Shown piece by piece: positions 22,751-59,666 of a DNA stretch of 62,520 nucleotides. The notes under the pieces are model-generated. The model made no database searches. It was given only the letters and a program-made list of their open reading frames with translations, and was not told the DNA's origin. A program made the position numbers and the translations under genes. This stretch comes from Thermoplasmata archaeon. GTDB taxonomy: Archaea; Thermoplasmatota; Thermoplasmata; Lutacidiplasmatales; UBA184. The stretch covers positions 1 through 62,520 of the forward strand of contig JAGWLG010000018.1 of NCBI GenBank assembly GCA_028864975.1, in the 5' to 3' direction. Each line of letters starts with the position of its first letter. Within the stretch, counting starts at the first letter, position 1.

Positions 22751-22833
22751 GCGACCTCGCTCGGCCATGCCGAGAGCAGGGGGCAGTCGCCCTGGTCGAG
22801 GGAGGACCGTCCCCGAAGGGGCAGGTCCGGTAG
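22751..22833 (+). repeat. Dispersed hairpin element, copy 1
   Basis: GCGACCTCGC..GGGGGCAG..GAGGGAGGACCGT-CCCC-GAA-GGGG-CAGGTCCGGTAG. Confidence 0.75.
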
Positions 22834-23203
22834 GTGCGGGCTTCCCTGACCGCTCGGCCCGGACGCGCCCTCGGACGCGGAGGCCGCGGGCTCGACCGAT
22901 CCTCCGCACGCTTGTTGCAGGGTATGCGGGAGGGAGCTGAGGCAATCGGCGATGAGCGTCGCGCTGCCGGGGCGCCCTCGAGGGTGAGACGTGAGGATGA
23001 CCCCTCGCGAGCTGTGGACCGTCAACGGGGTGTTCACGGTTGTCGTTGAGCATCGGATCGCCTTCACCCGTGAGACAGCAACCTCTTGAGCGAGTCAGGA
23101 GCAGTGAAGTGTTCTCCCTGGTGCATTCACGGTCATTGCCCAACGAGAAGAACGAGGCGCCGCCGGCTCGATACGTCCATTACGGCCCCTATCGCTATCG
23201 AAC

Positions 23204-23788
23204 TTGATGGTCAAGCCCACTGGTCAAGAGTCCCGACCCTTGCTCTCGATCGTTCTGGTCGCTTTGGTCGTCGGAGCTTCAGTCCCTACGCAGGAGGCCA
23301 AGGCGACGCAAGTACAGGTATTGTCCGATTCCGTCCTCGAAATCATGGGGTGGGTGAACGAGACTTCTGGGCATCAAGCCCCGGCCTGTTCGACTCAGGC
23401 TGGTCAGCCAGTCTGGATCAACATTTCGCTGCAAGCGCGGGCATGGAATGGAACACCGCCGTTCAGATTCTCTTGGCAGATCACGGAGTACTCTGGCGGC
23501 CCCCCCATGGTCAACCTAAGCGGCCAGGATCTTCAGTACAATCTCACGGGGCGCATGGCCGAAGGACAACAGGGGGTCATCTGGCTGAACGTGACCGACG
23601 CAAGCGCGCGGAACTCGGGCATTAAGCTCGACAAGCCGTGGCTTGCACTACCTGCAGCGGCTTGCGGGCAACCTTCGCCCTTCCTAGCTCTGCTCATCCC
23701 TGCTGCGCTGACACTCGTCGCGGCTATCCTGCTCCTGATTGTGAGTTCTTGGATCATCAGACGACGGTCGCGGAAGCGGGAGGGATAG
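23204..23788 (+). CDS. Surface protein with a PKD/Ig-like domain and TM anchor
   Basis: Signal peptide, GTPPFRFSW, C-terminal TM + RRRSRK. Confidence 0.7.
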   Translation: MMVKPTGQESRPLLSIVLVALVVGASVPTQEAKATQVQVLSDSVLEIMGWVNETSGHQAPACSTQAGQPVWINISLQARAWNGTPPFRFSWQITEYSGGPPMVNLSGQDLQYNLTGRMAEGQQGVIWLNVTDASARNSGIKLDKPWLALPAAACGQPSPFLALLIPAALTLVAAILLLIVSSWIIRRRSRKREG

Positions 23789-24099
23789 GCACAGTCGTGG
23801 GGTTCTCGGTGGTTTCGGTGCTGGCACCGTGCTCTCCGCGGCTGGGACATGGGTGCGGGACCACTCTCTTCTTCCACGCGGCGGTCGCGGTCGCTGCGGC
23901 CGCGGGAGGGGTAGGCGTGGTGAGGGCGCGGAGGCGGTAGCGGCGGAAGGGGACGGGCGCGAGCCGAGAGGGGAGGTAACGAGCCGCACGCCGAGGGTGG
24001 TGACCGCGAGGCCGCCCCGTCGGTCGCGTTTCCACGAAGCGCAAGACGCGGTCGAATCACGACCAAATGGTCTATGATTCGGGACGGACATGGTGAACC

Positions 24100-24321
24100 G
24101 TGAGGGCGGCCCCACCTGCCCGTTTCGAGTTCCCGCCCGGGGCGCTGCGTCGGGCATTCCTGCCTCCCATCATCATCGTTGGAGTGCTCGTGAGCCTGGC
24201 GGTCGCAATGCTGCTGCTCGGTGTGCCGTGGGGGGCGGCCGTCGAGGTCGGGTTGGTCGGAGGAGGCGTCCTGGGGCTTGTCCTGGTGTTCGCCCCGCGA
24301 CCGAAGGGGCGGTTGAGCTAG
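24100..24321 (+). CDS. Small two-TM protein
   Basis: 73 aa, two hydrophobic helices. Confidence 0.5.
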   Translation: MRAAPPARFEFPPGALRRAFLPPIIIVGVLVSLAVAMLLLGVPWGAAVEVGLVGGGVLGLVLVFAPRPKGRLS

Positions 24322-24455
24322 CGCGAATGGACCGGTCGGACCGCGTGCGAGACCTCCCGCCCGCGGGCCGGTGCTCGATTAGCCCTGAGGCGATCTCGGC
24401 ACCGCATGGCGCGGAACTCCGGTAGGTTAAGCCGAGTCGTGGGCATGGTTCGGGC

Positions 24456-25484
24456 GTGCGGGTCTGGCGAAGTGTGACGGTCGTGCTGGCGCTGCTTCTG
24501 GTGGCTCTCGGCGATCCCGCCGGGACGCTCGGTGGCGCCCCCGTCCCGACGGGTCACGAAACACCAGCCGCTTCACCACACTCCGCGGTCGCCCCCTCCG
24601 GGCCGAGCGCACTGCGGTCGTCTCTTCGCCTGCCGGACCCCGGGCCTTGCTCATCCCCAACACGTGCTCCGTTAAACGTTACGCTCGGCAGCGTACCAGA
24701 GTACAACACCGCCTACACTGGCTGGTCCATGTTCCCCGGCCTCGGCCCCATTCCTGGGGTGAACGTCACCGGTGGATCCGGTGACACAAGGAACTACACG
24801 TACTGGTGGCGGGGAGTTCCGCCCCCCTGCCCCTCTTGGAACACTCGCTGGTTCGGCGCGTGCGCACCTGCGTATCCCGGGAACTGGACCGTGCACGTCC
24901 AGGTGAACGACACTTCGGGGGGCGAGACCGCGACCTCGCCCCCGTTCTGGATCAACGTCGTCCGGAGCGACAACTTCTCGGTGACCTTCCTCGTGCGGCC
25001 CGCCAGCTGTGGCCCGATCCGGACCGGATGGTACCCGCCCGGTTGGATCCGATCACCGTGGAACGTGACCCTCGCGAACGGCTCGGTCGAGACCTTCCGC
25101 ACTCCAGACCAGCCGCCCGATGTGCAGGCGGGCGTGCTCGCGTGTGCCGGGTACAGGTTCGTCGAGTGGCAAGAGTCCGGCGGAGTTGTCGAGTCGAGCG
25201 CGGGCCCGCTCCTGTACAACGGGACCCTCCTCCTCCCGTACGCGGTGGACCTGACGATCTCGGGGAACGGTAGCCTCGCGGCCGAGTTCGCGAAGGTGCC
25301 GACGCCGCCTTCTCCTCTCGCGCTCCTCCTCCATTGGCCGCTCGTCCTTGTCCCGATCGTGGCGGTGGTCCTCCCTGTGCTGCTGCTCCTCCTTCCGCGA
25401 TGGCTACGGAGGCGTGGCCGTCGACGGCTCGAGGAGCCACCGTCTGCGGACAACACCGGCATTCAGGAAGCGGTGCAGAGTTAG
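24456..25484 (+). CDS. Surface protein (PKD-like plus InlB-B-repeat-like domain, TM anchor)
   Basis: Signal peptide, NYTYWWRGVPPPC PKD-like motif, GYRFVEWQESGG, TM + RRRGRRR. Confidence 0.7.
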   Translation: MRVWRSVTVVLALLLVALGDPAGTLGGAPVPTGHETPAASPHSAVAPSGPSALRSSLRLPDPGPCSSPTRAPLNVTLGSVPEYNTAYTGWSMFPGLGPIPGVNVTGGSGDTRNYTYWWRGVPPPCPSWNTRWFGACAPAYPGNWTVHVQVNDTSGGETATSPPFWINVVRSDNFSVTFLVRPASCGPIRTGWYPPGWIRSPWNVTLANGSVETFRTPDQPPDVQAGVLACAGYRFVEWQESGGVVESSAGPLLYNGTLLLPYAVDLTISGNGSLAAEFAKVPTPPSPLALLLHWPLVLVPIVAVVLPVLLLLLPRWLRRRGRRRLEEPPSADNTGIQEAVQS

Positions 25485-25646
25485 GAGCGCCGGCCTCGGC
25501 AGGACGGGAGGCGCGCGAAGTCGCGGACACGGGCTTGTGGACATGGTCGTGGCACTTCCATGCCCAAGAGAGGACGAGGCGGTGGATAGACTCGAGGGGG
25601 AAGCGGACGGAGGGCAGCGACGGGGCGGGATCGGCGTTGTTCACGC

Positions 25647-26225
25647 TCAGAGCGTGACCGAACTGGAGGAGCCTGCACCGCTCGTGGTGGTGGGCGTGAG
25701 CTGGGCTCCCACGAGGTCGACCCCCGGGCCGGCGACGACAAGAACGGTTTGGCCGCCCTCGATGGCCACCGGAATTGACGCGTTGAGGGCGGTCCAACCT
25801 GCCGATCCCCAGACGGCCAAGTCGCCTGCCCCCCCTGCAGCAATGAGGACCGCGACCCAAGAGGTCGACGAGGTGGGGCTTCGGATGCAGTTGTCGGGCG
25901 AAGAAGGGGCGCCGGCAGGGGTGGTGGAGCCGGCTCCCGCCAGGGTGAGCGCGAAGCCGAAGTTGGCGGTGGTGAGGGTGTAGGCCGCGCCCCCGATGGA
26001 GACCGGAACCGTCGCGAACCGGGTCCGGGACGCGTCGCTGCAGTTTCCCATCAGGCCGGCCGTCCCCCATGGACCGCAGAGCGCGCGGCAAGGATTCCCG
26101 GATGGCCGGGGCGCGGTGAGAAAGAGCAGGGTCCCGACCAGCGCGACCGCGAGCGCGACCAGGAGCGCGGCCGCGAGGAGGCGCCGGGGAGAGCGGTCCT
26201 CGCGGGGACCTGGACGAGCGGGCAC
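25647..26225 (-). CDS. Membrane-anchored pilin-like/secreted protein
   Basis: N-terminal hydrophobic helix after a basic leader, Cys pairs, beta-rich domain ending GAGSSSSVTL, similar in style to Thermoplasmata pilin-like proteins. Start GTG 26225 inferred. Confidence 0.5.
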   Translation of the reverse strand: MPARPGPREDRSPRRLLAAALLVALAVALVGTLLFLTAPRPSGNPCRALCGPWGTAGLMGNCSDASRTRFATVPVSIGGAAYTLTTANFGFALTLAGAGSTTPAGAPSSPDNCIRSPTSSTSWVAVLIAAGGAGDLAVWGSAGWTALNASIPVAIEGGQTVLVVAGPGVDLVGAQLTPTTTSGAGSSSSVTL

Positions 26226-26387
26226 GCGCCTAGGAGGACGTGCGCCCCGATGAACTATCGTGGGGGGGGAATGGGGCGCGACGCGGGCCGCGGGGGCGCG
26301 CGAGGGGCCGCGGGGTTCCCTTGGCCTTCCCGAGCTTCCCTCGCCCACGCCGCCCGCGAGGCAAGACCAAGGGCGTGGGGGGCGCCC

Positions 26388-27287: not shown

Positions 27288-27848
27288 TCACCCGGCCCGC
27301 CGAGGCCGACCTGCGTCGGCCTCGCCCTCCAACGCGGCGTGCGCCTGTTCCAGCGCGTCCATCGAGTGCGGAAGCCACGCGCTGAACATCGCATCGAGGG
27401 TCGGGAAGCAGACCCGGTCGCACCGAGGGGCGAGGGGCAGGTGTCGCCCCGAGGGAGGCCTCACCGAGGCCCCGGGGGGGCCGAGGGAATCCGAAGGATG
27501 AGGCCGGCACCGCCAGCACGAGATGGAACCGAGAGACCCCCGACCCCCCGGAGAAGCCGAGGAAGATGGGGTCCCTCGGGAGGACTCGGCCGCGACCGAC
27601 TTGGCCCACACCCGAAGATCGGACGAGTCCGTATCGGGGGTCCAGGCGGGGCCGAGGAGCGGAGGCGCGCCTCGCTCCGAGGTAGGACCCGTCGGAGGAC
27701 CCTGGGGCCGAACGACGGGTCCGGTATCGGTGATGAGAGGACCGAACAGGGGCGACGGGTCTCCCCAGCGTGAGAACTGGCGGTGGTCGGTCCAGTCGTG
27801 GCCGCACCGAGGACAGGGGGCCGTCTCTCTGTCCGAGGGAGGACGCAT
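27288..27848 (-). CDS. Cys/His-rich Zn-binding hypothetical protein
   Basis: ATG 27848: CPRCGHDWTDH..CWRC..CDRVC. Confidence 0.45.
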   Translation of the reverse strand: MRPPSDRETAPCPRCGHDWTDHRQFSRWGDPSPLFGPLITDTGPVVRPQGPPTGPTSERGAPPLLGPAWTPDTDSSDLRVWAKSVAAESSRGTPSSSASPGGRGSLGSISCWRCRPHPSDSLGPPGASVRPPSGRHLPLAPRCDRVCFPTLDAMFSAWLPHSMDALEQAHAALEGEADAGRPRRAG

Positions 27849-28045
27849 CGCAGAAGACGGGTCGCTCTGTCGATGCGTCCGGAACCCCGGGACGGGGCAG
27901 GGCCGAAGGACGCCGTCAGCCCCGCGTCCTTCGGGAGGCCTCGGCCCCGACTCGCTTGGCCCCCCCGAGAGCTTCGGGACGAGGCCGGAGCCCATGGCCG
28001 CGTCGACGGGCCCGGCCGCGTCCCACGCACCGGCCCCCGACTCGC

Positions 28046-28336
28046 TCACCACCCCTCCAGGGCTCGGCGGTCCCCGCGGAACTCCGCACGGGCGCAGGGG
28101 GCTGGGTCGTGCGCGGGGTCCGTGCTTCCGCACCAGGGGCAGTCCTGGAACCCCGCCGCGTGGAGGCAGACGTTCCCCGCGAGGACGTGGCCGAGGAAGA
28201 CCCGAGAACTCCCGGACCGGCCGGAGGACCGGGGCAGGGGCTTCCGAGGGAGGCCCGTCCCCGGGGGCTCGGCCCACGGGGCAGGGCCGGTAGCGTGCTC
28301 GGCGTTCGTTGCGGTCTTGGCGCTCTTGGTCGTCAT
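28046..28336 (-). CDS. Small Zn-finger-like protein
   Basis: MTTKSAK..CLHAAGFQDCPWCGSTDPAHDPAPC. Confidence 0.4.
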   Translation of the reverse strand: MTTKSAKTATNAEHATGPAPWAEPPGTGLPRKPLPRSSGRSGSSRVFLGHVLAGNVCLHAAGFQDCPWCGSTDPAHDPAPCARAEFRGDRRALEGW

Positions 28337-28610
28337 CGCCCTCTGGGGGAACGCCGAGGGTCCCACGAGGACCCTCGGACGGACTCGGCCTCAAGATGAC
28401 CGGCCCCCGCGATCCGCGAGGACGAGTCCAGGTTCGACCCCATCCCCCCGAGCCGCCCGAAGGGCGGCCGCCCGGAGCGGGTCGCGGGCCGCCAGGGGAA
28501 GGCTCCCTACGTGTAGCGCGGAGCAAAGCGGAGCGCGGAGCCTAGGAGACTTCCGCGAAGGACCGAAGGGCCTTCGCGAGGACCCGTCCACGAGACGGGT
28601 CCGAACCTCC

Positions 28611-28693
28611 GCGACCTCGCCGAGGGTCCCACGAGGACCCGAGGGAGGACCTGACCGAAGGGCATGTCCGAAGGGGGAATGCGGTCGACCGTT
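28611..28693 (+). repeat. Dispersed hairpin element, copy 2
   Basis: GCGACCTCGCCGAGG..GAGGGAGGACCTG-ACCGAAGGG-CATGTCCGAAGGGGGAATGCGGTCGACCGTT; closely matches 45411-45525. Confidence 0.75.
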
Positions 28694-28972
28694 CCGGCGA
28701 AGGCGAGGCCGAGGACCTTTGGTCCGAGGGGACCCCGAAGGGGCCGAGCGAGGACCTGGCCCGAGGAGCGAAGCCCGCAGGGGCAGGTCGGAACCCGATG
28801 ACGACCGAGAGCGCGACTCACGCCGCGGACGGCGAGGGTGGACCTGCGAACTCGCGACCTCACCGCACGGGCGAGGGCCGCGACCGGGTGGCGCGGCCCG
28901 AGCTCGCGGGACGCTACGAGGGGCGGGCCGACCCGAAGGATTGATGGCGGGCGTCCCCCCATCAGTTCCGGG

Positions 28973-30118: not shown

Positions 30119-30625
30119 ATGATCCTTCACCTGGAGACCGACGCCTCGCTTTGTCAGCGGCACGGTGCCCGAGGAGCTGACCGAAGGTGGCGCGCCCCTG
30201 GCGGAGCGGGGGTGGTCATCCGCACCATGGGGATAGAGATGCTGGCGATGTTCGCCGTCAGCTTGGGCGACGTGGGGTCCACGGTCCACGCGGAGGGGCT
30301 CGCGCTCGAGTTCGGCCTGGAGCGAGTCCTCGCCCGGGGGGCCACGGGGGTGCGCGTTCGGGTGGACAGCACGGACCTGGTCCGGCTCGTGTCCGGGGAA
30401 ACCTCGAGCCCCTCCCCCGACATCGAGGGGATGGCCGAACGCCTCCGCCAGCTCACCCGTCGCTTCGACCCTTTCGACCTTCGGTGGGCGAGATCGACCC
30501 ACGTGACCCGTCGAGGCGACGGGGCCCTCTCGGCCGACGCCCTGGCGAAGATCGGGAGCGGAGTGCTCCGCCCCCGGGCCCTGCCCGCAGGGGTCAAGGT
30601 TGAGAAGTGGGCGGCGGAGCGATAG
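30119..30625 (+). CDS. rnhA: Ribonuclease HI (archaeal/RNase H-like)
   Basis: LETDAS..GAGVVI..HAEGLALEFGLE..VRVDSTDLV..ADALAK: all four acidic catalytic positions present. Confidence 0.8.
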   Translation: MILHLETDASLCQRHGARGADRRWRAPGGAGVVIRTMGIEMLAMFAVSLGDVGSTVHAEGLALEFGLERVLARGATGVRVRVDSTDLVRLVSGETSSPSPDIEGMAERLRQLTRRFDPFDLRWARSTHVTRRGDGALSADALAKIGSGVLRPRALPAGVKVEKWAAER

Positions 30626-33616: not shown

Positions 33617-33714
33617 GCGCCAAGAGTCATACATCGTGTAATACATAACCATTTCCGCCCAGGGCTCCCGACCCCCTGGTTCCGGGGCCGGACCGAGGAA
33701 CGGGAGGCACCGAA

Positions 33715-33766
33715 GGACGGGGGCAGGCCTCGTCCTGAGGGAGGACCTGGCCACAAGACAGGTCCG
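33715..33766 (+). repeat. Dispersed hairpin element, copy 3
   Basis: GGACGGGGGCAG..GAGGGAGGACCTG-GCCACAAGA-CAGGTCCG, about 100 nt upstream of vapB. Confidence 0.75.
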
Positions 33767-34038
33767 GCAGAGGCCGTTCCTCGGGCGGACTCGGCCGAGG
33801 GAGTCGCTTCATGGCAGGCTGACCGACGGGCAGGACTCCCGAGGGATGACTCGGCCAAGCGACGAGTCTGAACCTACGAGGACGGGTCCAGAGCCTCCCT
33901 TCGGTTGTCGAAGGGAGGCGGAGGCCCCCCCAAGCCTGCAGGATGACGGGTCACGCCCACGGCTCGTCCGAGCTATAGAAGACGGCATCGGGCGAAGGGA
34001 GATACGCCGGTCACGCCTTCCATGAAGTCGCAACGCCC

Positions 34039-38932: not shown

Positions 38933-39301
38933 TCGGGGCTCCCTCGGCCTCCTCGCGGTGACCTTACCGGGAACTCTCGTCCCCGCTTCGGGGCGGACCG
39001 GACCGATGGGCCGACGGTTGCCCCTCGTGGCCCTCAGGTCGAAGACAGCGCCGACCGTCCGATCGCGGACTCGCAAGCGGGGGGACCCGTCATCGGGGGG
39101 GAAGGCGGCCCGTCAGGCGCCGATCCGCTGACGGAGCCGAGGCTCGTGCCCCCGCTGACAAGCGAGAAGCAAAGACGAGCCTCGGGAGGACGTGTCCCGA
39201 GGGCTCGCGCCCGATGCGATACGTCCGAAATGGACGAACCCCGATTGGTTCGGCCGAGGCCTCCCTCGAAAAGGGAGGGAGGCCGAGGGCCCCCCGTCCA
39301 T

Positions 39302-39781
39302 TCAGGGACCGAGCACCGCCATCGACGCGTTGCGCCCGAGGGAGAGCTGGAGGCGGCCCCGATACTCCTTGACCCAGGCCCCCGCGAGGCGGACGCGCTG
39401 CCCTGGCTGGAGCTTCGTGGTCTGAGGCCCCCAGAGGACCAACTTCACCGTGCCCGACGCGTCCTGGAGCACGGCGTCAGCGACTTCGGCGGGACCACGG
39501 GAGGTGACGACTTCGCGGGTGGGACCGACAGAGGCCACGGTGGCCTCCAGGGTGGCTTCTGCGTTGGGGCGGAGGGCGGCAATCCCCGCTGAGGCGGGGG
39601 CGGCGCTGGCGAGGGGTCCCCCTTCTCCCCAAGAAGCCGAAGGACCGGTGGCAGGGGACCCCGAGCGAGGCCCCGTTCCCTGGCCCAACGGGGCCGAAAT
39701 GGGGCGGCCGCAGGTCGGGCAGGTGGCGCGGTCGGCGTTGGCGGCTGGTTCGGAGGCGCTGTTGGCGCTGCTCGCGGACAT
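39302..39781 (-). CDS. ssb: Single OB-fold ssDNA-binding protein with N-terminal CxxC extension
   Basis: IAALRP..ATVASVGPTREV..VADAVLQDASGTVKLVLWG..VKEYRGRLQLSLGR: archaeal SSB/RPA OB fold. Confidence 0.85.
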   Translation of the reverse strand: MSASSANSASEPAANADRATCPTCGRPISAPLGQGTGPRSGSPATGPSASWGEGGPLASAAPASAGIAALRPNAEATLEATVASVGPTREVVTSRGPAEVADAVLQDASGTVKLVLWGPQTTKLQPGQRVRLAGAWVKEYRGRLQLSLGRNASMAVLGP

Positions 39782-40205
39782 CGGTGAGATTGTCCGCGAG
39801 ATGCGATGGCTCGTGGGGCTGTGGCCCAAGCCCGCCGAAGGCGGGCATGCGCCCGAAGGGCGCATCTCGTGCACACGGAGCGGAGCGCAAGCGGAGCGGA
39901 GTGTGCGCGTTCGATCGCTCCGACCAGGACCCGGACTTCCTCCACTCGTTCACGCGAGACGACCAGCTCCTTTGGGTGCGGCCGAGCGGAGACCCACATG
40001 CGTCGGAGCTCGGCCGCACCGCGGCCCCCCAAAGGTCAGCTGGGCCTTCTCCGAGCTACAGGGCGGCGACCCGGGAGGGGAGCGCGAAGCGCGTTGGGGA
40101 GGTGTCCCTTCCTCCCCAAACGACAACAAGATGCGCCCCGCCTGCGGGTGAGGAGGCGGCCCAAGGAAGGACAAGGCGGGGGCTTGCGGCCCCCGCCCCC
40201 ATGCT

Positions 40206-40600
40206 TCACCCGTCGTCGTAGTCCGACCCCGGCATGACCGCAAGCTCCCGGGCCCTCACCTCCGACATCCAGTCGTGCGGCGCGGCGAGGAGCTCCTCCG
40301 CGTCCTCCACGTGGACGGGGTGGAACCGAGGAGCGGGGGGCAGGGGCCGCTCCGAGGCCGGACCTTGTCGCGGTGTCCTTTCAGGACCCGCGATAGGTCC
40401 AGGGCCGTTGTGGAGCCCCCGGCACCGACCGCACCCCGTCCCCACCGGTGACGCTTCGTCCGCGCGGGGGCAGGTGTCCTGCGGCGCGACCGACACCCTC
40501 GCGCAGAACCTCGCCAGCTTGACCTGGTCGTGGAAGACCTGGACGGCGACATCCGGGCCGCTGCGGCGAGGGCTGCGCGGGCGGCCGCCACCCGCCCCCT
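40206..40600 (-). pseudogene. Frameshifted 3' fragment paralogous to 44119..45132
   Basis: RVAAARAAL / frameshift / PDVAVQVFHDQVKLARFCARVSV..HVEDAEELLAAPHDWMSEVRARELAVMPGSDYDDG; 5' part replaced by a TA module. Confidence 0.75.
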
Positions 40601-41175: not shown

Positions 41176-41324
41176 AGAAATGCTCCATAATGGACATGGG
41201 GTGAGAGTACTTAGCGGTGCGGAGCGCCTCCACCTACCCGTGGCCCCGCGATCTCCGACGCGGGTCGGGCGGCCGCACCGAAAGAGCTCCCTCACAGCGG
41301 GAACCGACCGGAAGACCGGGCCGA

Positions 41325-41392
41325 GGACGGGGGGCCTTCCACCGTCAGAGGGAGGACCGTGTCCGAGCTACCGCGAGGAGCAGGTCCGGTAG
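41325..41392 (+). repeat. Dispersed hairpin element, copy 4
   Basis: GGACGGGGGGCC..GAGGGAGGACCGT..CAGGTCCGGTAG. Confidence 0.75.
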
Positions 41393-41493
41393 CACGGCTC
41401 TTTCGGGAGGACCCGGCGTCCGCGGTCCCACCCTGACGACGGGTCCGCAGGTGGGGCAGGCCGAAGACGAGGGAGAGGATGCCGGCCGCGTCC

Positions 41494-42011: not shown

Positions 42012-42148
42012 CGCTCCGAGTAATGGACGGGTCATAGATAACGGCTCCCTTCGCGCGTCGGACACGGTACGGGCCGCGCCTTGGGTCTCGCCCCGCCGTG
42101 CGTCCGGGTGGCGCGGCCGAGGGACCCGCGGCCCCCGTCCGGGTCCCT

Positions 42149-42193
42149 AGGGAAGACCGTCCGAGTCGGGGAACCCGACGAGGCAGGTCGGGT
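42149..42193 (+). repeat. Dispersed hairpin element, copy 5 (variant)
   Basis: AGGGAAGACCGT..GTCGGG-GAA-CCCGAC..CAGGTCGGGTA. Confidence 0.6.
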
Positions 42194-42309
42194 ATCGGCG
42201 GTGCTGGCGGGTTCGGAGGCGGTCTTGCCGCTTCTCTCGGACAACCCTACCGATGTCCGAGAGGAGCGGTGAGGTGCGAAGTTCAAGTCCTGGACGGCTT
42301 GAGGCGGCG

Positions 42310-42813: not shown

Positions 42814-43007
42814 TAGGGTCGGTCCCTCCCTCCCACGGGACCGACCCGCAGGGCCGGGGCCCTCCCCCCTACGCCTCGCTCCCTGGTAGGCACGCCACCT
42901 CCCGAGTCCTCACCTCCGCGAGGTGGTCGCAGGGCGAGCGGAGGGTCTCGGTCGGGTCGTCGACGCGGATGGGACGCAAGACGCGGCGCCGCCCGAGCGC
43001 GCCCCCC

Positions 43008-43325: not shown

Positions 43326-43537
43326 ACGCCCGCCCGCTCGAAGACCTCTTCCGCGCTCGGGCCGCGCAGGTCGGCAAAGCGGTGCTCGAGCTCCTTGACC
43401 AGGCGCGGGGGGAAGTGCTCCTCGACCATCTCGAGGATCAACTCCTCGTAGGTCTGCCCTGAAGCCTTGAGCGCGTCCAGGAGACGGCGCGTGCTCTCAT
43501 GGACCTGGAGGGTCGTCGTGGGGTCCTTGGCGGCCAT
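43322..43537 (-). CDS. RHH-like antitoxin 3
   Basis: TTTLQVHESTRRLLDALKASGQTYEELILEM; promoter CCTTATCTCC followed by palindrome ATAGCGCGCTAT. Confidence 0.8.
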   Translation of the reverse strand: MAAKDPTTTLQVHESTRRLLDALKASGQTYEELILEMVEEHFPPRLVKELEHRFADLRGPSAEEVFERAGV

Positions 43538-44118
43538 CGCTCCTCTATAGCGCGCTATGGAGATAAGGGCGCGCCCCCTTCGTCGAGCGGTCCGGGCGGC
43601 GGTACGGAAGATCCCCCAAGGATTCGGTCCTGCCGAGGGGGAGAGGGGTCCCTCACCCGTCGTCCCAATTGCTCTCGGGGAAGCGCGCGCTGGCGCGGGC
43701 CTCCACCTCCGTTCGCCCGTCGTGCGGGCTCGATCGCTCGGGGCAATTGGGAAAGGACCGCCGCAGGCGGTCCAGGCGGCCGAAGGCCGCCTCTCGTGCA
43801 CTCGGCCAACGGCCGAGTGCGCGCAGGAGGGGATGCCCAAGCCCATGTACGTCCCAGATCAGTTCTCCCGGGATGGCCGGCTCTCGTTGGTGGGGCCTCG
43901 GGGCGACCTTCCGGCGTCGTCCCGAGGCCGCCCGCGGCCCCCAATGAGTCAGCCGGACCCTCTCCGAACGGCCCGGGGCCCGCGAGAGGGTAGCCCGAAC
44001 GGGCGTAGGGAGAGTTGCTCCCTGCCATCCTCGAGAAGATCGACCCCGGGTCGAAAGACCGACGAGGAAGGAGGGAAAGGGGCGGGGGCGCGGGGCCCCC
44101 ACCCCCCTGCCCCGGGCC

Positions 44119-45132
44119 TCACCCGTCGTCGTAGTCCGACCCCGGGAGGACGGCGACCTCCCGGGCCCTGACCTCACTCATCCAGTCCGCCGGGGAGGAG
44201 AGGACCTCCTGGAGGTCCTCGACGTGGATGGGACGGAAGGCCCCGTGGGTCCCCCGGCACCACCCGCAGCGCGCGCCCGCGGGAAAGACATCCTCCCGGC
44301 GCGGGCAGATATCGACCGGCGTAACGGAGAAGCGCGCGCAGAAGAGACGAAGGCGCGTCTGGTCGTGGAACACCTGCGCCCGGGCCACCGGGTGGGCCTC
44401 GAGCGCGGCGAGGGCCGCCGCGACGCGCCCCTTGCGCTCAGCCTCAACCTGGGCCCTGACGCGCTGGTCGTCCTCCCGCGTGTCGTCCGCGAGCCCGCTC
44501 GTGATGTCGAGAAGGGTGAACCGAGAGAGGCGCCCGAGGCTCTCCCGCTCCCCCTTCGGGAGGTAGGCTTCGACCGAGGTCTTGGCGTGGTCGCGCGGTC
44601 GCCGGGGGGCGGACCCCTGTGGGTCGCGCGGCTGGCGGCGTCCAGGGACCGAAGGACCCCTGGGGAGGCTTGGGAGTGGGGCCACCCCCGAGCGGACCAT
44701 CACCACGAGGCCTAGGCTCTCCAGGGAGGGGATGTCCGAACCGAGCACGACCCCCGTCCACTCGCGGGCGACCGGGTCCCACCGGAGATGGAGGGCCTTG
44801 AGCTCCGCGCGGTGGGCGTAGCTTGCGGGCCCCGCCCCGACGCCCACGAGGTAGTAGCTCGAACCCTCGAGGTTCGAGCGAGGACTCGCCGACGGGGGGC
44901 AGGGGCCGTCGGTGAGTCCGGACCCCTTCTCTTCGCGCGTCAGGGGCTCGGCCCCAAGCGTCTGGACGGGAGCGACCTCGACGGTGGCCCGGGCCGCGTC
45001 GAGCTTCGCCCTCAGCTTCACTGGGTCGACCGGGTGGCCGACCAGGCGCTCGATGCGGGCGAGCGTGGGGGCCCTCTTCGGGTCGTGGTAGGCGAGGTTG
45101 GCGGGGGCGCTGTTGCTCAGCACGTCCTCCAT
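44119..45132 (-). CDS. Mobile-element protein with DUF5710-like (K..G.RWD....W) motif and Cys-rich C-terminus
   Basis: SYAHRAELKALHLRWDPVAREW; C-terminus FCARF..ICP..CGWC..WMSEVRAREVAVLPGSDYDDG. Confidence 0.6.
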   Translation of the reverse strand: MEDVLSNSAPANLAYHDPKRAPTLARIERLVGHPVDPVKLRAKLDAARATVEVAPVQTLGAEPLTREEKGSGLTDGPCPPSASPRSNLEGSSYYLVGVGAGPASYAHRAELKALHLRWDPVAREWTGVVLGSDIPSLESLGLVVMVRSGVAPLPSLPRGPSVPGRRQPRDPQGSAPRRPRDHAKTSVEAYLPKGERESLGRLSRFTLLDITSGLADDTREDDQRVRAQVEAERKGRVAAALAALEAHPVARAQVFHDQTRLRLFCARFSVTPVDICPRREDVFPAGARCGWCRGTHGAFRPIHVEDLQEVLSSPADWMSEVRAREVAVLPGSDYDDG

Positions 45133-45410
45133 CTTCTCCTTCCGCTCGGGGGTGGGGAGGCACCCGCTCGCGGTGGTCGTTCGGCTCTCGGCGTTCGTGG
45201 CGCTTTCCGCGCACGTGGCTGTCATCGCCCGAAGGGTCAACGTAGCGAGCGACACCCCGACAAGATTGGATGTCAGGCGCGCGAAGCGCGCACTTCGCTT
45301 GTGGTCGACCCCACCCCTCCGAGGTCGCTGGCGACGCGGGGTCCCGATATGCGTCCTCGCTCCGTCGAGGACCTTACGGGACCCCGCCGAGCGGAGCGAG
45401 GGAACGTCCC

Positions 45411-45525
45411 GCGACCTCGCCGAGGAGCGGGGGGCAGGGGCCGATCCTCGGGAGGACCTGGACGACCTCCTGACCCGAAGGGTCGGCGGGAGGACAGGTC
45501 CGAAGGGGGAGTGCGGTCGAACGTT
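45411..45525 (+). repeat. Dispersed hairpin element, copy 6 (longest)
   Basis: GCGACCTCGCCGAGG..GGGGGCAG..GGGAGGACCTG..GACCC-GAA-GGGTC..CAGGTCCGAAGGGGGAGTGCGGTCGAACGTT. Confidence 0.75.
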
Positions 45526-45872
45526 GAGGCTTCAGCCCGATGACAGCCACGTGCGGCCCGGCGACACGAACGCCGCGCCGCGAACGGGCCCCGCGAGCGG
45601 TCCCCTCCCGCCAGTCTCCCGACATGGGGACGGGCGGGGTCGCGCCGCTGCGCCCGGACGAGCCATGACGCGGCGGAAGGGGAGAGGAGCGACGCGGGCG
45701 GAGCGAACGCTGCCATCCGCCCGTCAGGGGAAGGAGCGGGGAACTCCCCCTCCCTCCCGCTCAACTTTCCCTGGGTAGGAACGTGGAGACGGGATGACGA
45801 ACTCACCTGGTCGACGGAGAAAGATGGACGCGACCGGCGAGAGCCCAGATCATCATGCAGGTCCTCACGATT

Positions 45873-56014: not shown

Positions 56015-56233
56015 TCACCGGCGAGGGGCCGTCCTCACCTCAAGAGTACAGCGACCGATCTTCACCGCGAACTGCCAGTGGTCGTGGGCCACCACGAAGA
56101 CCCCGGAACCTGCCGCACGCCAGTCCCCCTCCCGCACCAGCCGCTCCAGGTCGACGGCCGACAGGCTCCGGTCCAGCATCCGCTTCTTCAGTTGGAGCAA
56201 CGGCACCACGAGGAAGGCCTTCCGGGGATCCAT
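56015..56233 (-). CDS. DUF4258/BrnT-like toxin, possibly degenerate
   Basis: KKRMLDRSLSAVDLERLVREG motif, immediately upstream of the YgiT-type gene. Confidence 0.55.
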   Translation of the reverse strand: MDPRKAFLVVPLLQLKKRMLDRSLSAVDLERLVREGDWRAAGSGVFVVAHDHWQFAVKIGRCTLEVRTAPRR

Positions 56234-56242
56234 CGTCCGCCC

Positions 56243-56734
56243 TCACGAGGTCGAGGGCGGGCGGGAGACGCGCGTCGCGGTGAGGCCCCACGCCTCCAGC
56301 TCCTCGAACGTCCGTCGCACGGCGGCCTCGAGCAGCCCCCACTGGCGCGCGGTGGCGGGAACCTGCTTCGCGTGGTACGCCCTCCAGGCGACTCGCGCCA
56401 CGTACTTGGAGTTCGCCTTCCCGGCGTCGGTGTAGAGGCGGCGGCCGAGGTGGTCGGGGGCGAGGGACCCCCCATCGCGGGCACCGACCGAAGGGAACGG
56501 GGTTCCTCGCGAGGACCCGGCCCCCCGAAGCAAGGCGCCCACGCCACTCGGGGCCGGGTCCGAATCTCCTCGCGCGAGGTCGCGGAAGTGGTCTCGTGCC
56601 TCCTTCCAGGCGTACCCACCCGGAGGTGCGGCCCGCAGGGCCTTCATGCGGTTCGCGGTGCGATCTTCCGAGGGGAGAGCGCGAATCCCTGGGGTCGCGC
56701 GCATCTCCCGGGTCACGAACTTCGGGTCGGTCAA
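56243..56734 (-). CDS. Hypothetical protein
   Basis: 163 aa, GTGA-coupled in the minus-strand chain. Confidence 0.5.
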   Translation of the reverse strand: MTDPKFVTREMRATPGIRALPSEDRTANRMKALRAAPPGGYAWKEARDHFRDLARGDSDPAPSGVGALLRGAGSSRGTPFPSVGARDGGSLAPDHLGRRLYTDAGKANSKYVARVAWRAYHAKQVPATARQWGLLEAAVRRTFEELEAWGLTATRVSRPPSTS

Positions 56735-56952
56735 CGCTCACACCTCCCGACCGTTTCTCCGCGTCCGTGACAGGGCTTCTTCCCGTCCCAGTAGAAGGTG
56801 TTGGATGGGGCGTGTCCTTCCGTCGAATCAACCACGAGACACCTTTGGCACTGGCGCTGCAGCTCGGTCCCAAGGTTGCGCCACGCTGACCAGTCATGCT
56901 TCAACCGCTGGCGCTTGGGAGCCCCGGGGGGCCCGCGGTTCTTGGGCTTCAT
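56731..56952 (-). CDS. Small His/Cys protein
   Basis: MKPKN..KHDW..CQRC..PC; ATGA overlap with the macrodomain stop. Confidence 0.5.
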   Translation of the reverse strand: MKPKNRGPPGAPKRQRLKHDWSAWRNLGTELQRQCQRCLVVDSTEGHAPSNTFYWDGKKPCHGRGETVGRCER

Positions 56953-57389
56953 GTGGTGTACACCTCGATCGGGATGGACATGGACGACGGCGCCCTCACG
57001 ACAAGAGGGCGGACGTCGGCCCACGCGAGCCCGCCCAGCCCGCACCCGAGCGCAGGGAGGGACAGCGAGGTGATGCCTCGGGCCTCGGCGTCGTTCGCGA
57101 TGCGGGAGAGGCCCTCCTGGATCGCGCCCAGCGACGCGGGGTCCTTCCAGTGGGCCTTCGTCGGGAAGCGGAGCACCCAGGGACCTGTGGGGTGCCGCCA
57201 GAGGTAGGGATGGCCTGGCCCGAGGGCCCCTTCTCGGCAGGCGAGGACGTACTCCTGGAACATCGTGTGGAACCGGCGCTTGAACTCCAGGGCGAGGCCC
57301 GCACCCATGACGCCCACGCAGTTCACGGGGTTCGGAAGCGTCTGAGCGCGCGACGCAAAGATGTCGCCGCGGACGAAGGTGAGCGTCAC
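56949..57389 (-). CDS. DarG/TARG1-like macrodomain (ADP-ribosyl glycohydrolase)
   Basis: GDIF..NPVNCVGVMGAGLALEFK..FPTKAHWK..SLSLPALGCGLGGLAW; start GTG 57389. Confidence 0.9.
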   Translation of the reverse strand: MTLTFVRGDIFASRAQTLPNPVNCVGVMGAGLALEFKRRFHTMFQEYVLACREGALGPGHPYLWRHPTGPWVLRFPTKAHWKDPASLGAIQEGLSRIANDAEARGITSLSLPALGCGLGGLAWADVRPLVVRAPSSMSIPIEVYTT

Positions 57390-57694
57390 TGGGGTGGCTC
57401 CATGACCGGGCGATCGTAGCTCACGGTGGCATGAAGGGTGCGGACGCAGAGCTCGCACACGCGCGCGAGGCGCCTGGGGGGAGAAGGAGGACCAGCGTAG
57501 ACCCCCACGAACTTGGTCCCCTTCGGGATGCGCTCGGCGCAGATGCGGCATGTTCGGCGACCCCGAGGGACCCGCCTGACCGGGGAGGGGCCAGCGGACC
57601 GGGGCACGGGTCCCTCGGGAGGCCCGTCCCCGAGGGGATTGCCCCGAGGGGCAGGGCCGGAGTCGGCGGTGTGGACGTAGAACCTTCGGGTCAT
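57386..57694 (-). CDS. PARP-type-like Zn-finger protein
   Basis: RRTCRICAERIPKG..VCELC; stop overlaps the macrodomain start. Confidence 0.55.
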   Translation of the reverse strand: MTRRFYVHTADSGPAPRGNPLGDGPPEGPVPRSAGPSPVRRVPRGRRTCRICAERIPKGTKFVGVYAGPPSPPRRLARVCELCVRTLHATVSYDRPVMEPPQ

Positions 57695-57748
57695 GGACCT
57701 CGTTCCTCACGAGGGAGGAACGAGGGACTGCGGGCGGCCGCGTCGGGC

Positions 57749-58231
57749 TCAGGCCACTCGGACCGGCCCGCAGAGCGGGCAATAGACCCAGTCGGGGATG
57801 AGACGCCAGCGCTGCTCCGCCACGTCGTTACGCGAGTAGAGGGGGAGGACCCCCGTCGCCGGACTTGGCGTGTGGGCGGGCGAGGGCCCGTCCAGCTGCC
57901 CCGTCGTGAGCTCCCAGATCTCGTCCCCCTCCCCGTCGACGCGGCGTCTCGCGCGCCCGTGCATCTCCAGGAGACCGAGGGCGGCCTCGCCGTCGGACCG
58001 GGCGACCCCGTGCTCCTCCGCGAGAACGAGGAGCGACTCCCGGGTCTCCCCGGGGAGGTGGGCGATGATCTCCTCGAGCGCCCCTGCGGCTTCGCGCGAT
58101 CGCTCGGCATCGTGGCTTGGCTTCGTTCGGGCTGGGCTCGGCCGGTTTCCTCTGGTGGCCAGCATGGGCATCCTCGCTGGTAGAGGATGCCCATGTGGTG
58201 TGGAGTCCATCCTGTTGGGCCGCGTGTTCAT
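57749..58231 (-). CDS. Hypothetical protein with wHTH-like segment and C-terminal CxxC
   Basis: LLVLAEEHGVARSDGEAALGLLEMHGRARR..WELT; YCPLCG. Confidence 0.5.
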   Translation of the reverse strand: MNTRPNRMDSTPHGHPLPARMPMLATRGNRPSPARTKPSHDAERSREAAGALEEIIAHLPGETRESLLVLAEEHGVARSDGEAALGLLEMHGRARRRVDGEGDEIWELTTGQLDGPSPAHTPSPATGVLPLYSRNDVAEQRWRLIPDWVYCPLCGPVRVA

Positions 58232-58686
58232 GAGGCGCGTGCGCTCCCCGTGGGAGGGGGTGGGGTGTGCCCGAATCCGAGGTTGAGATGGAGAAGGAGG
58301 GGGAGTCGACCCGATGCCCATGTTGCCTCGGCGCGCGCGAGCACCACTTCCCTGATGTCCGCCCCCTCCCCGTTCCGTGCCGCGCTTGCGGGGGGAAGGG
58401 CGTCCTCGAGTGAGGACGGCTTCAGCCGATGGCCGGCCGGCTCAAGCGCGACCAGGTGGCTGAAGTGCCACCTTCGCGGGACCGGCGCGCCTGGTAGACT
58501 CCGCCGGCAGGTGGCACGCCTCGCGGCATGGGCCGTCGAAGGCGTCAGCCTCACGGAGGAGCGGGGCGACCCTTCGCTCTCACCGGGCCCGGCGGCGGAC
58601 CGCCGCCGGTTCAGACATCGACCGCCTCCTTCGCGAGAACGAGGAGCGCCACCGATACCGAGCGCTCGAGGAGACACCCGTCGGCG

Positions 58687-58911
58687 TCAGGTGTGCTCGA
58701 GGAACTCTTCCACGCTGACCCCTGCGTCGCGGATGATGGCCCGAAGGGTCCCCTTGCGGAGATCCTCTCCAGGGTGCACCGGGACGGTCACGATCCGCCC
58801 GTCGGGATGCTTCAGGTGGAGGTGGCTTCCCCGTTGGTGGTCCTGGACGAAGCCCAAACGCTCCAAGGCGCGGATGACCTTCCGTGCCGTGAGCGGAACG
58901 AGTCGCGTCAC
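58687..58911 (-). CDS. hicA: HicA toxin
   Basis: ARKVIRALERLGF..RGSHLHLKHPDGRIVTVPVH..GTLRAII. Confidence 0.95.
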   Translation of the reverse strand: MTRLVPLTARKVIRALERLGFVQDHQRGSHLHLKHPDGRIVTVPVHPGEDLRKGTLRAIIRDAGVSVEEFLEHT

Positions 58912-58915
58912 GTCC

Positions 58916-59125
58916 TCAAGCCTTCACGGGCTCGAGGATGACGAAGTGGGTGGGGGGGACCGCCCTATCGCGGGTTTCGAGATAGCCCAGGATTGCTTCC
59001 TCCATGCGCTCCAAGACCTGCTTCTCGGTCTTCCCCTGCGTGATGCAACCAGGAAGTTCCCTAACGGTCCCCACGAACCACCCATCCTCATCCTTCTCCA
59101 CGAGGATGTGGTACTTCGTTGCCAT
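58916..59125 (-). CDS. hicB: HicB antitoxin (short form, upstream of the toxin)
   Basis: YHILVEKDEDGWFVGTVRELPGCITQGKTEKQVLERMEEAI. Confidence 0.95.
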   Translation of the reverse strand: MATKYHILVEKDEDGWFVGTVRELPGCITQGKTEKQVLERMEEAILGYLETRDRAVPPTHFVILEPVKA

Positions 59126-59133
59126 CGCTTCAG

Positions 59134-59541
59134 TCAGGCGCTCAGCTCCTCTTGACATTTCCGAGAGACCTCTCTCGGCAGGGGAGAGAGGTCTCGAGGG
59201 GGCGGGCACTCCTCAGGCTCCCAGGCCCCGCACCCACACTCCGGCCCGCGCCAGATCCCGACCCCGACCTTCAGCATCGCCCCATGGTGCACACAGTGCG
59301 GGGTCGGTTTCAGATCGGGGCTGTCGGCCTTCAGGAAGACGAGCCCGCGCGAGACAGAGTCCGCCCCGTTCTTCGGAGGGTTGGCGGACCTGGTAGGCAT
59401 CTCCCGGAGGTCTCGAATCTGCATCGCGGTCTCCCTCACAAGCTGAGGGGGACCGCGCGCGGCTCCAGGGGGTAACAGGGGAGGCTCCACCGTCTCGAGA
59501 GGATCCTTGACCTCTGCGATGCGGCCTCGAGACGGGCTCAC
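59134..59541 (-). CDS. Hypothetical protein with CVHHG..CGC motif
   Basis: 135 aa; PHCVHHGAMLKVGVGIWRGPECGC. Confidence 0.45.
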   Translation of the reverse strand: MSPSRGRIAEVKDPLETVEPPLLPPGAARGPPQLVRETAMQIRDLREMPTRSANPPKNGADSVSRGLVFLKADSPDLKPTPHCVHHGAMLKVGVGIWRGPECGCGAWEPEECPPPRDLSPLPREVSRKCQEELSA

Positions 59542-59627
59542 AGCCTCCCCAGTGCAGCGTGACTACGCGAGGGCGCCCTCTCCCGCTCTCAGGAGGAGGG
59601 CGCTCGCGGCCGCGCGCTCGAACCGAA

Positions 59628-59666
59628 GGACCTGCCTCCGGGGACAAGCCGAACGCCAACAGGTCC
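59628..59666 (+). repeat. Dispersed hairpin element, copy 7 (core only)
   Basis: GGACCTG-N25-CAGGTCC. Confidence 0.5.

Follow-up and report, generated by a model that had tools for sequence, protein, structure and literature searches.

The window, a 62,520-nt stretch of DNA from an uncultured Thermoplasmata archaeon, carries toxin-antitoxin pairs and other small genes, along with short repeated hairpins that are copies of a miniature, noncoding mobile element. One of its genes (44119..45255, minus strand) encodes p378, a 378-amino-acid protein of no known family, with neither a Pfam nor a PHROG match. By tblastn, p378 is multicopy and often fragmentary, and copies of the element frequently land there; all six genomes that bear the motif have p378, as does genome G019, and four more genomes of the family give weak matches (E 1e-8 to 1e-11). 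The gene at 39302..39829 (minus strand) encodes an OB-fold (RPA/SSB-like) protein whose Pfam OB-fold matches fall below the cut-off. It also belongs to a multicopy family by tblastn, and alignment shows that its homologue on contig C9 of genome G010 is split by a copy of the element.

With our covariance model (R1), the window has at least 16 copies, on the plus strand only. The copy at 22768..22834 (69.3 bits; DNA fold z of -2.7) is complete, with a hairpin 1 and a hairpin 2 tipped by GAA. A dense cluster (27421-28796) opens with the copy at 27421..27511 (46.6 bits), which is 84% identical to a copy on contig C58 of G001, and continues with copies at 27650..27728 (63.3 bits), 27805..27886 (54.4 bits), 27901..27992 (weaker, 38.5 bits) and 28219..28294 (48 bits), the shortest form of 58 nt at 28618..28675 (52.2 bits), and a degenerate copy with an extra small hairpin at 28707..28796 (24.8 bits). 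By-eye comparison with 45508-45545 indicates that this degenerate copy was inserted in the sequence following the 28618 copy; GCGACCTCG, directly upstream of the latter, is flank and is homologous to the flank of the copy at 45418. The copy at 33708..33771 (62.8 bits; DNA fold z of -3.2) is nested between the arms of an 11-nt perfect inverted repeat (CCGAGGAACGG / CCGTTCCTCGG), with the start of vapB 56 nt downstream, and the weak second copy beside it at 33793..33875 scores 33.5 bits, which is the level of the best chance match (32.9 bits). Further copies lie at 39135..39232 (37.7 bits), at 40324..40412 (41 bits), at 41319..41393 (62.4 bits), where the copy separates two toxin-antitoxin pairs on the gene map, at 42115..42196 (55.2 bits), 80 nt upstream of an antitoxin gene ending at 42035, at 45418..45507 (58.8 bits), 163 nt upstream of the p378 gene, and at 57597..57664 (40.2 bits), where the flanks of hairpin 1 are atypical. 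The feature at 59600..59676 (plus strand) is a hairpin-2-like hairpin alone (nhmmer E of 0.002-0.3; no R1 match), and its membership is doubtful. The initial annotation had thus described a real family that is larger than it claimed: its copies at 22751, 28611, 33715, 41325, 42149 and 45411 all score 52-69 bits, and the copy at 40340 that it considered weak is genuine (40324-40412, 41 bits). Those at 59628 (here 59600..59676) and 29723 are hairpin-2-like only and doubtful (nhmmer E of 0.3-3), and the dense cluster, 33793, 39135-39232 and 57597-57664 had been missed.

Across copies the unit is about 58-97 nt long and follows a fixed order, in which CCGAGG is followed by hairpin 1, CGAGGGAGG, hairpin 2 and G(R)NA; the single hairpin described previously is therefore replaced by two. 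The 5' end, CCGAG, is sharp, and the 3' end is the G-R-N-A just beyond hairpin 2. Hairpin 1 has a covarying stem, is flanked by a tandem G.A motif and often carries the loop GGCAG, which is what had been read as an upstream GGGGGCAG box. Hairpin 2 has a GGACC/GGTCC base and a variable tip; the GAA triloop emphasized in the initial annotation is found in some copies, but others have GAG or longer tips. Outside the stems, conservation extends to the hairpin 1 loop and to the single-stranded CCGAGG and CGAGGGAGG. The GCGACCTCGC box, formerly assigned to the element, is flanking host sequence, given that the empty paralogous site on contig C83 has it too. Both stems are maintained through compensatory changes: 92% of pair cells are paired, and both sides change in 12 of the 15 pairs. 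For this alignment, which was fitted to the model, covariation scored 0.416; shuffles gave 0.134 (0/500), and sliding the partners gave no more than 0.10. Folding is better for the motif strand than for its complement in 41 of 47 copies with RNA parameters and in 44 of 48 with DNA parameters, G.T pairs outnumber A.C pairs on it (20 versus 10), and three of the four copies examined have DNA fold z scores of -2.7 to -3.2.

Each method of detection favored the plus strand. Allowing at most one mismatch, GAGGGAGGACC matched 17 times versus 6.0 expected (0/100 shuffles), with 14 of the 17 on the plus strand. All 13 matches on the contig to an nhmmer profile seeded with the seven originally claimed copies were on the plus strand. 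At E<1, R1 gave about 23 matches in the window, and the sole exception to the plus strand was a partial match overlapping a plus-strand one. The strand bias first proposed is strict. As a specificity control, R1 was run on 610 kb of bacterial DNA that was GC-rich and chosen beforehand for matches to the conserved letters of the element; the best score there was 32.9 bits. At 38 bits or more, six related archaeal genomes contain at least 48 copies, which are spread over at least 10 contigs, and orientation was uniform on all 15 contigs bearing two or more copies. Genus g1 carries the element in 3/3 relatives and genus g3 in 2/5, and searches of 31 further genomes of the family and of 24 from other families of the class found none; all genomes are metagenome-assembled and 64-98% complete. 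Copies are few, in the tens and not the hundreds, and are limited to the mobile part of the genome. They are diverged (median identity 65%), with a few pairs 91-97% identical, one of these between genera.

Eleven comparisons of filled and empty sites each show a discrete insertion of 78-93 nt, with flanks that abut exactly or within 1-2 nt. The copy at 39135 is a clean 93-nt insertion relative to a paralogous region on C83, where blastn shows its flanks (39094-39137 and 39231-39342) abutting at 15739/15738; the copy at 45418 is likewise a clean insertion of 85-87 nt relative to C83, and an 86-nt copy on C9 of G010 interrupts sequence that is contiguous at 39236-39556 of the window and in C83. 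By tblastn, the p378-family gene into which the copy at 40324 is inserted (antisense, 78 nt net) is a C-terminal fragment, and the copy forms a filled/empty pair with C58 of G001. Net lengths were 78, 78, 85, 86 and 93 nt, in addition to the 93 nt of the copy at 39135, and further pairs involve C74 (two), C121, C393 of G024 (two) and C71, where the copy at 893-980 is nested in the loop of a copy consisting of hairpin 2 only that is uninterrupted on C92 (29063-29111). From these comparisons the unit is very probably a mobile insertion. Most pairs are paralogues or come from different species, such that insertion and excision look alike, and they speak to the position of copies and not to recent activity. 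Among the eleven comparisons, no terminal inverted repeats, target duplication or constant target were found. Left flanks differ (CTCG, GAGC, GGTG, GCG, TGGG, GGAA, CTGG and GGAG), and right flanks start with CC in 5 of 9 cases, which is a weak signal in DNA of 67% GC.

These insertions bear directly on the two functions originally proposed. One of these was that the hairpins are attC-like sites of integron-like gene capture, akin to those of bacterial and archaeal integrons (PMC9668308), with toxin-antitoxin pairs and small genes as cassettes. The co-oriented arrays, the toxin-antitoxin-rich cargo (as in sedentary integrons; PMC9668308), the conserved base and variable tip of hairpin 2, the folded strand lying antisense to genes like the attC bottom strand, and the small modules shared in shuffled order by related genomes all recall such a system, and here, too, a folded single strand could plausibly be what is recognized. 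However, attC-like sites are expected at borders between different cassettes, whereas the copy itself is the sole difference between collinear homologues. The site is itself mobile and enters ORFs, it has two hairpins instead of one, its ends (CCGAG... and ...GGTCCG(R)NA) lack the RYYYAAC / GTTRRRY (R''/R') cores, clusters reach ten sites in 1.4 kb without genes, and no integron integrase (IntI) reaches the family cut-off in the genome (best 80 bits versus 265, on another contig). Gene capture is thus largely refuted, and we consider it very improbable. The other proposal was of single-strand promoters or priming sites (Frpo or ssi type). Sites of this kind, acting on the strand that a conjugative or rolling-circle element transfers or displaces, would suit the strand bias, the stable DNA hairpins and the mobile-element cargo of the region (DUF932, toxin-antitoxin pairs and the OB-fold, ssDNA-binding-like protein). 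Such sites are expected to be fixed features of a leading region, not insertion polymorphisms on many contigs of six genomes and within coding sequences; the conserved parts contain neither a -35/-10 nor an archaeal TATA-like pattern, and no origin of transfer was found in Pfam scans of most called window genes. We regard this as the least credible of the alternatives. What stands from the initial interpretation is a single strand-biased, folding family for which a single-stranded form is reasonable.

Copies land between genes (most of them), inside the hairpins of other copies and inside ORFs. All 17 intragenic copies are antisense to their host ORF, on home-made gene calls (codon log-likelihood) in which about 10 of the 17 hosts are well supported and some are short, doubtful ORFs. 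Genes flanking copies are on the opposite strand in 47 cases and on the same strand in 20. Copies are as often downstream of a stop codon as upstream of a gene, and their reported placement 90-300 nt upstream of minus-strand modules is explained by insertion in one orientation between and within genes. Several copies are in frame within apparently intact genes, including a 26-amino-acid block, with conserved domains on either side, carried by those members of a 355-433-amino-acid protein family that lie on C8 and C92, and a 31-amino-acid block that distinguishes the C121 paralogue of an Orc1/Cdc6-like AAA+ protein from that on C92. We considered that the family could be a structured RNA, either a retroposed small RNA gene or cis-acting RNA, or a DNA element kept for a function of its transcript (mRNA end protection, termination or antisense control of toxin-antitoxin genes). 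The strength of covariation matches that of RNA families, the tandem G.A and the G.T excess on one strand would fit, and many small operons have copies in their untranslated regions. The better-folding strand, however, runs antisense to almost every host gene, which leaves the mRNAs with the poorer fold. No Rfam family matched even at E up to 5, there is no poly-A, truncation series or retroposon-like target duplication, no reverse transcriptase was seen in the window (the RVT_3 match at 30212-30625 is an RNase H-like domain), and copies in ORFs and in one another are hard to account for. An RNA gene or RNA function is accordingly improbable.

The shape of the stems is kept rather than their sequence and the two ends are unlike, suggesting that the element is probably recognized and moved as a folded single strand. 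It might be a true IS200/IS605 member, a PATE-type MITE or REP-like sequence moved by a Y1 HUH enzyme (TnpA or RAYT) that is unbinned, carried by a virus or plasmid, or lost. The absence of inverted ends and target duplication, a hairpin near each end and strand-specific orientation are consistent with this, as are the Y1_Tnp genes of G024, at least five TnpB genes in G000, and the incompleteness of the assembled genomes. IS200/IS605-type elements insert adjoining a fixed target of 4-5 nt, but no constant flanking tetranucleotide was seen in 10 pairs. Y1_Tnp was not found in G000, G001, G002, G003 or G010, five of the six carriers, one of which is 98% complete; in these five genomes, the mobilizing enzyme is apparently not a Y1 HUH transposase. 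No copy or half-copy adjoins any TnpB gene, no longer element with the same ends was found, and none of 220 array proteins has an HUH-plus-Tyr motif. Strict membership is therefore unlikely. Even so, the PATEs of Haloquadratum, which derive from IS200/IS605 elements (PMC3119063), and RAYT-moved REPs are likewise short, noncoding and strictly strand-specific, and are found in clusters and nested copies; they too lack terminal inverted repeats and target duplication and have a hairpin close to each end, the shape of which is important. The element differs from both in the Y1 HUH and tetranucleotide observations above, in ends that are shared with no TnpB or TnpA element of the genome and in numbering tens and not hundreds of copies restricted to the mobile genome part, and from REPs in lacking a GTAG head and inverted pairs.

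Other small mobile elements offer partial parallels. Rickettsia palindromic elements (RPEs; PMC10969869) are also small palindromic mobile elements without a known transposase, and they too occur in frame within genes, adding a peptide segment while the gene is kept. RPEs are, however, bacterial elements of about 100-150 bp with no sequence relationship to the family described here, most copies of which are intergenic. They are not known to keep a uniform strand orientation per region. Classical prokaryotic MITEs (Correia, Sulfolobus SM1-4 and others) are similarly miniature, nonautonomous, multicopy and mostly intergenic, but their terminal inverted repeats and target-site duplications, products of DDE transposases, are both absent here.

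Collectively, our findings favor a nonautonomous element that probably moves as a folded single strand, with an enzyme supplied in trans, and lands in one orientation; taken separately, the chances that movement uses a single-strand mechanism are about even. Mobilization in trans could occur by peel-and-paste or a related single-strand recombination. Integration into one strand would produce the uniform orientation, and could take place at replication forks or in mobile elements passing through an ssDNA stage. Either strand may be the active one; if transcription of the host genes is codirectional with replication, the strand that folds better would be on the leading-strand template and not the exposed strand. 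Selection against the sense orientation in genes could underlie the 17:0 antisense bias, given that sense copies would bring a strong GGAGG ribosome-binding-like site and stabler hairpins into the mRNA, and in-frame copies may survive in disordered protein linkers. On the best reading, this archaeal element belongs near the REP and IS200/IS605-MITE kind.

The two-hairpin repeat of this contig is very probably a mobile insertion, and the decisive result is a set of 11 pairs of homologous sites with and without a copy, in which only the site differs, the flanks are collinear, and several of the sites lie within ORFs. An 86-nt copy on contig C9 of the related genome G010 interrupts sequence that is contiguous both in the window at 39236-39556, inside an OB-fold gene, and on C83 of the source genome, G000 (alignment A3). 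Relative to a paralogous region on C83, window 39135-39232 is an exact insertion of 93 nt and window 45418-45507 one of 85-87 nt; other clean pairs were found on C74 (two), C121, contig C393 of the related genome G024 (two), at window 40324, and on C71. The 5' border is CCGAG in every pair (once GCGAG), and the 3' border lies 3-5 nt beyond stem 2 with A as its final base; neither end (CCGAG... or ...CCGGTA) is an inverted copy of the other. We detected no target duplication at these pairs and no constant word common to their flanks; the left flanks differ among 10 pairs, and the right flank begins with CC in five of nine. The GCGACCTCGC box that the initial annotation counted as part of the element occurs at the empty C83 site and is therefore flank.

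Two copies bear on the choice of insertion site. The copy at C71:893-980 occupies the loop of a hairpin-2-only copy whose C92 version is unbroken, and window copy 33708 is placed between the arms of an 11-nt perfect inverted repeat. Loops of hairpins thus appear to be preferred for landing, which would also account for the cluster of copies at 27.4-28.8 kb. We considered insertion polymorphism in contigs from four DNA runs compared with window 26.5-46.4 kb, given that joints in one run skip 45419-45507, 39137-39231, and 28554-28673. The letters at these joints agree with those of the empty paralogous site on C83; the joints therefore probably come from the paralogue or a relative and were set aside.

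The hairpin family itself, as well as its bias to one strand, bore out what had been read from the sequence initially. A conserved 11-mer is enriched and strand-biased in the window, and an HMM built from the seven copies first claimed gave 13 matches on the contig, all on the + strand, with more copies on nine other contigs. Our covariance model, R1, gave about 23 window matches at E<1, all on the + strand save one overlapping partial match, and 48 matches of at least 38 bits in sequences fetched from six genomes. In a specificity control of 610 kb of GC-rich bacterial DNA preselected for the conserved letters, the R1 maximum was 32.9 bits; this DNA came from a regex scan of 185,579 species genomes, in which the matches listed were chance ones in GC-rich bacteria. 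No Rfam 15 family reached its gathering score, and none matched the copies at E up to 5. Six of the seven main copies and one of the two weaker ones claimed initially were confirmed, with 59628 and 29723 remaining doubtful, while the cluster of about ten at 27.4-28.8 kb and the copies at 33793, 39135, and 57597 had been overlooked.

The consensus of the 48 aligned copies reads ggCCGAGG ... CGaGGGAGGaCc ... gGtCCGg, and folding copy by copy revealed a common layout of CC-GA-GG, stem 1, CC-GA-GG-GA, stem 2, and G-R-N-A. Stem 1 has 6-9 bp and a loop that usually contains GGCAG. The base of stem 2 is GGACC/GGTCC (or GGCCC/GGGCC), followed by a 2-nt mismatch or a TG/CA step and two or three more pairs, under a tip whose length ranges from 3 to about 45 nt. 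Across the alignment, which was fitted to R1 so that pairing is somewhat inflated, 92% of pair cells are paired and 12 of 15 pairs show changes on both sides, with shuffled and slid controls far below; despite this fitting, hairpin 1 stems are plainly different words from copy to copy. The copies are old and varied: their median identity is 65%, and a few pairs reach 91-97%, one of them across two genera. The pair that spans the genera, L019:1501-1588 (a fetched stretch of G024:C162) and C71:893-980, is 97% identical, which suggests that the carrying element recently moved from one genus to the other. All three remaining species of the genus carry the hairpin element, as do two of the five in a second genus; searches under stricter filters did not detect it in a further 31 genomes of the family or in 24 from other families.

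Orientation is uniform on every contig with at least two copies, eight from G000 and seven from its relatives, including 14 copies on G010:C9 that are all on the + strand. Between 20 and 62 kb of the window each strand carries about half of the coding length, yet no copy lies within a + gene. Each of the 17 copies within genes runs antisense to its host ORF (about 10 of these ORFs are well supported), and the genes flanking copies lie on the opposite strand in 47 cases and on the same strand in 20. We propose that this pattern has two layers: a mechanism that would insert one strand in one direction across long distances, and selection that would act against sense copies in transcripts.

In 41 of 47 copies under RNA parameters and in 44 of 48 under DNA parameters, the better fold is that of the motif strand and not of its complement. 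For four copies the DNA fold z-scores were -2.7, -3.2, -1.2, and -2.8 versus -1.3, -1.3, -0.6, and -2.5 for the complements, and G.T pairs number 20 versus 10 A.C pairs. The CCGAGG words flanking stem 1 can extend the stem via a tandem G.A mismatch on the motif strand only, which is suggestive, not proof. We consider the chances roughly even that the element moves as a folded single strand; its circle or excision junction would read ...GGTCCGGTA joined to CCGAGG....

Comparison with known systems places these properties. As in integron arrays, the sites share one orientation. However, the integron integrase IntI, a tyrosine recombinase with an extra domain at the array head, was not encountered, the attC R''/R' cores RYYYAAC ... 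GTTRRRY do not appear in the 48-copy consensus, and an integron site is gained or lost with its gene at a cassette border, whereas here the site alone is the indel. The attC-like cassette function proposed by the initial annotation thus fails on the integrase, on the core sites, and above all on the site being the indel. Its other proposal was a single-stranded promoter or priming site. Frpo/ssi sites occupy a fixed leading-region position beside an origin of transfer or replication, and their folded strand has promoter or primer activity; Pfam scans of most called window genes revealed no relaxase-type domain. The initial annotation was right on folding and strand and probably wrong on function. 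Classical MITEs, derived from DDE transposases, have terminal inverted repeats and a fixed-length duplication, neither of which the present element shows. It does share with IS200/IS605 MITEs (PATEs) and REP/RAYT systems the lack of terminal inverted repeats and target-site duplication, as well as structure-conserved hairpins near both ends. Its anatomy and behavior are of the single-strand "peel-and-paste" kind. In contrast to those systems, five of the six carrier genomes yielded no Y1 HUH transposase (TnpA or RAYT), no constant tetra- or pentanucleotide immediately precedes the insertions, and ends common to a full-length tnpA/tnpB element were not seen around the TnpB loci sampled. Since these three defining features are lacking while the integron and classical MITE readings fail, we file the element, as a working assignment, as a variant of the hairpin-element kind that operates in the manner of a REP or IS200-type miniature.

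The search for the mobilizing enzyme covered several candidates and did not reveal it. The Y1 HUH transposase domain (PF01797) was found in G024 only and was not detected in G000 (89.6% complete), G001, G002, G003, and G010 (98%), which are incomplete MAGs, so this is not proof of absence. No R1 match was found in 5-6-kb stretches around six of seven TnpB-domain loci, there was no HUH-plus-Tyr motif in 220 array proteins, and a search for a long version of the element (0.15-4.5 kb, with matching hairpin-2 arms) gave chance-level matches only. The best score for the integron integrase model TIGR02249 in the whole G000 genome was 80.5 bits (contig C73) against a cut-off of 265, and scores fell below the cut-off in all 14 control genomes too. 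Contig C73 carries five tyrosine-recombinase genes (at about 5.5, 8.2, 12.6, 13.8, and 35.6 kb), all under that cut-off. On C102 (42900-43060; 6901-7060 of the fetched stretch L014), an IS110-family (DEDD) transposase gene begins some 60 nt past a weak half copy resembling hairpin 1, and IS110 may have landed in or beside an element copy there. IS110 elements require a fixed 11-14-nt target, which the varied insertion sites contradict, and IS110 was rejected as a partner.

The 378-aa protein p378 (44119-45255, - strand) had no known domain in Pfam and no usable match in the ESM Atlas. Every carrier genome has it, as does G019, with weak matches in four others, and it is multicopy and mostly fragmentary in G000 and its relatives. 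Although it co-occurs with the element, many of its loci have no copy nearby and copies sit in it as insertions, so that p378 looks more like a target or fellow passenger than like the enzyme; it may belong to integrated elements invaded by the hairpin unit. Of the three ParE-type toxin-antitoxin pairs, two are immediately adjacent to fragments of its C terminus (40209-40556 and 42875-42979), as would be expected were the end of the gene a recombination or integration hot spot. The OB-fold (RPA/SSB-like) protein at 39302-39829 (- strand) has an N-terminal CxxC stretch, and hairpin arrays of several genomes contain 10 or more copies of its family; it may be a single-stranded DNA-binding protein of the invaded mobile elements. 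A 4-5-kb module of four or five uncharacterized genes recurs on four contigs (C8:27055-31096, C92:28395-32585, C17:1764-7669, and C71) and includes an HTH protein and a 355-433-aa protein with a zinc-ribbon-like N terminus. The module probably represents a family of integrated mobile elements that serves the hairpin unit as its main host. Among viral contigs, neither p378 nor the 355-433-aa family had a relative.

Copies also reside inside proteins. Members of the 355-433-aa family (on C8, C92, C17, and G024:C393) have several blocks of 17-31 residues in proline/alanine/serine-rich linkers, each limited to a subset of members and bordered on both sides by conserved domains that stay in frame (alignment A4); the 26-residue block shared by the C8 and C92 members corresponds exactly to copy C8:28238-28319. 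On C121, an Orc1/Cdc6-like AAA+ paralogue has a 31-residue block (93 nt) that is absent from the C92 paralogue, while the remainder aligns end to end. Two p378-family genes contain 78-nt copies, and the OB-fold gene of G010 is broken by its 86-nt copy. A single constant reading frame was rejected, as at least two are used (...SLG... and ...LPR...). Rickettsia palindromic elements have likewise been described in frame in otherwise intact protein genes (PMC10969869), a likeness of behavior and not of sequence.

The G000 MAG comprises 3.6 Mb in 124 contigs at 67% GC, the window being one entire 62.5-kb contig (C72), and its source is an archaeon, given that ribosomal protein L31e was found. Public runs containing the window stretch are mine-drainage and soil metagenomes, none of them of RNA. 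Gene calling relied on a codon log-likelihood model trained on G000, which superseded GC3-only calling (just 34% coding), and annotation on Pfam; a tRNA/tmRNA search found none. From 20 to 62 kb the region encodes large PKD/Kelch/NHL surface proteins, a vapBC pair, three ParE/RelE-type pairs, the OB-fold protein, DUF932, Macro, and SLOG proteins, and numerous ORFs of no known family. The genes for an RNase H-like (RVT_3) protein (30212-30625, + strand) and, on the - strand, for the SLOG (YspA-related; 54555-55187), Macro-domain (56949-57389), and DUF932 (59922-60782) proteins are cargo typical of defense or mobile islands. The 392-aa ORF at 19116-20294 (+ strand) matches a type I restriction R subunit in its N-terminal and ResIII helicase part only and probably represents a truncated hsdR. 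Directly upstream of an antitoxin gene starting at 43537 lies a perfect 12-nt palindrome, ATAGCGCGCTAT (43546-43557), which is probably the autoregulation operator; a similar word precedes an 80%-identical pair in G024:C44. In related genomes the modules of the region recur as short pieces only and in shuffled order, which fits a mosaic mobile region.

In summary, small hairpin elements that lack inverted ends and footprints are known chiefly from bacteria (REPs) and from a few haloarchaea (PATEs), and to our knowledge these are always tied to Y1 HUH transposases. The present family, from an uncultured archaeon, exhibits the same behavior without this enzyme in most carriers. It is a useful test case, given its uniform orientation over tens of kilobases and in-gene copies that are all antisense and in part tolerated in frame. 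The covariance model and the exact ends provide a defined substrate for an enzyme hunt, and the element marks the mobile fraction of the carrier genomes and explains why array regions assemble into many short contigs. Putative integrated elements encoding the p378, OB-fold, and 355-433-aa proteins both co-occur with the hairpin unit and are invaded by it. We tentatively raise the possibility, which we regard as rather unlikely, of an undescribed class of archaeal single-strand mobile element, two-hairpin and footprint-free, with a non-Y1-HUH enzyme perhaps encoded by this element family. If so, in-frame copies would be a source of new linker peptides in archaeal proteins.
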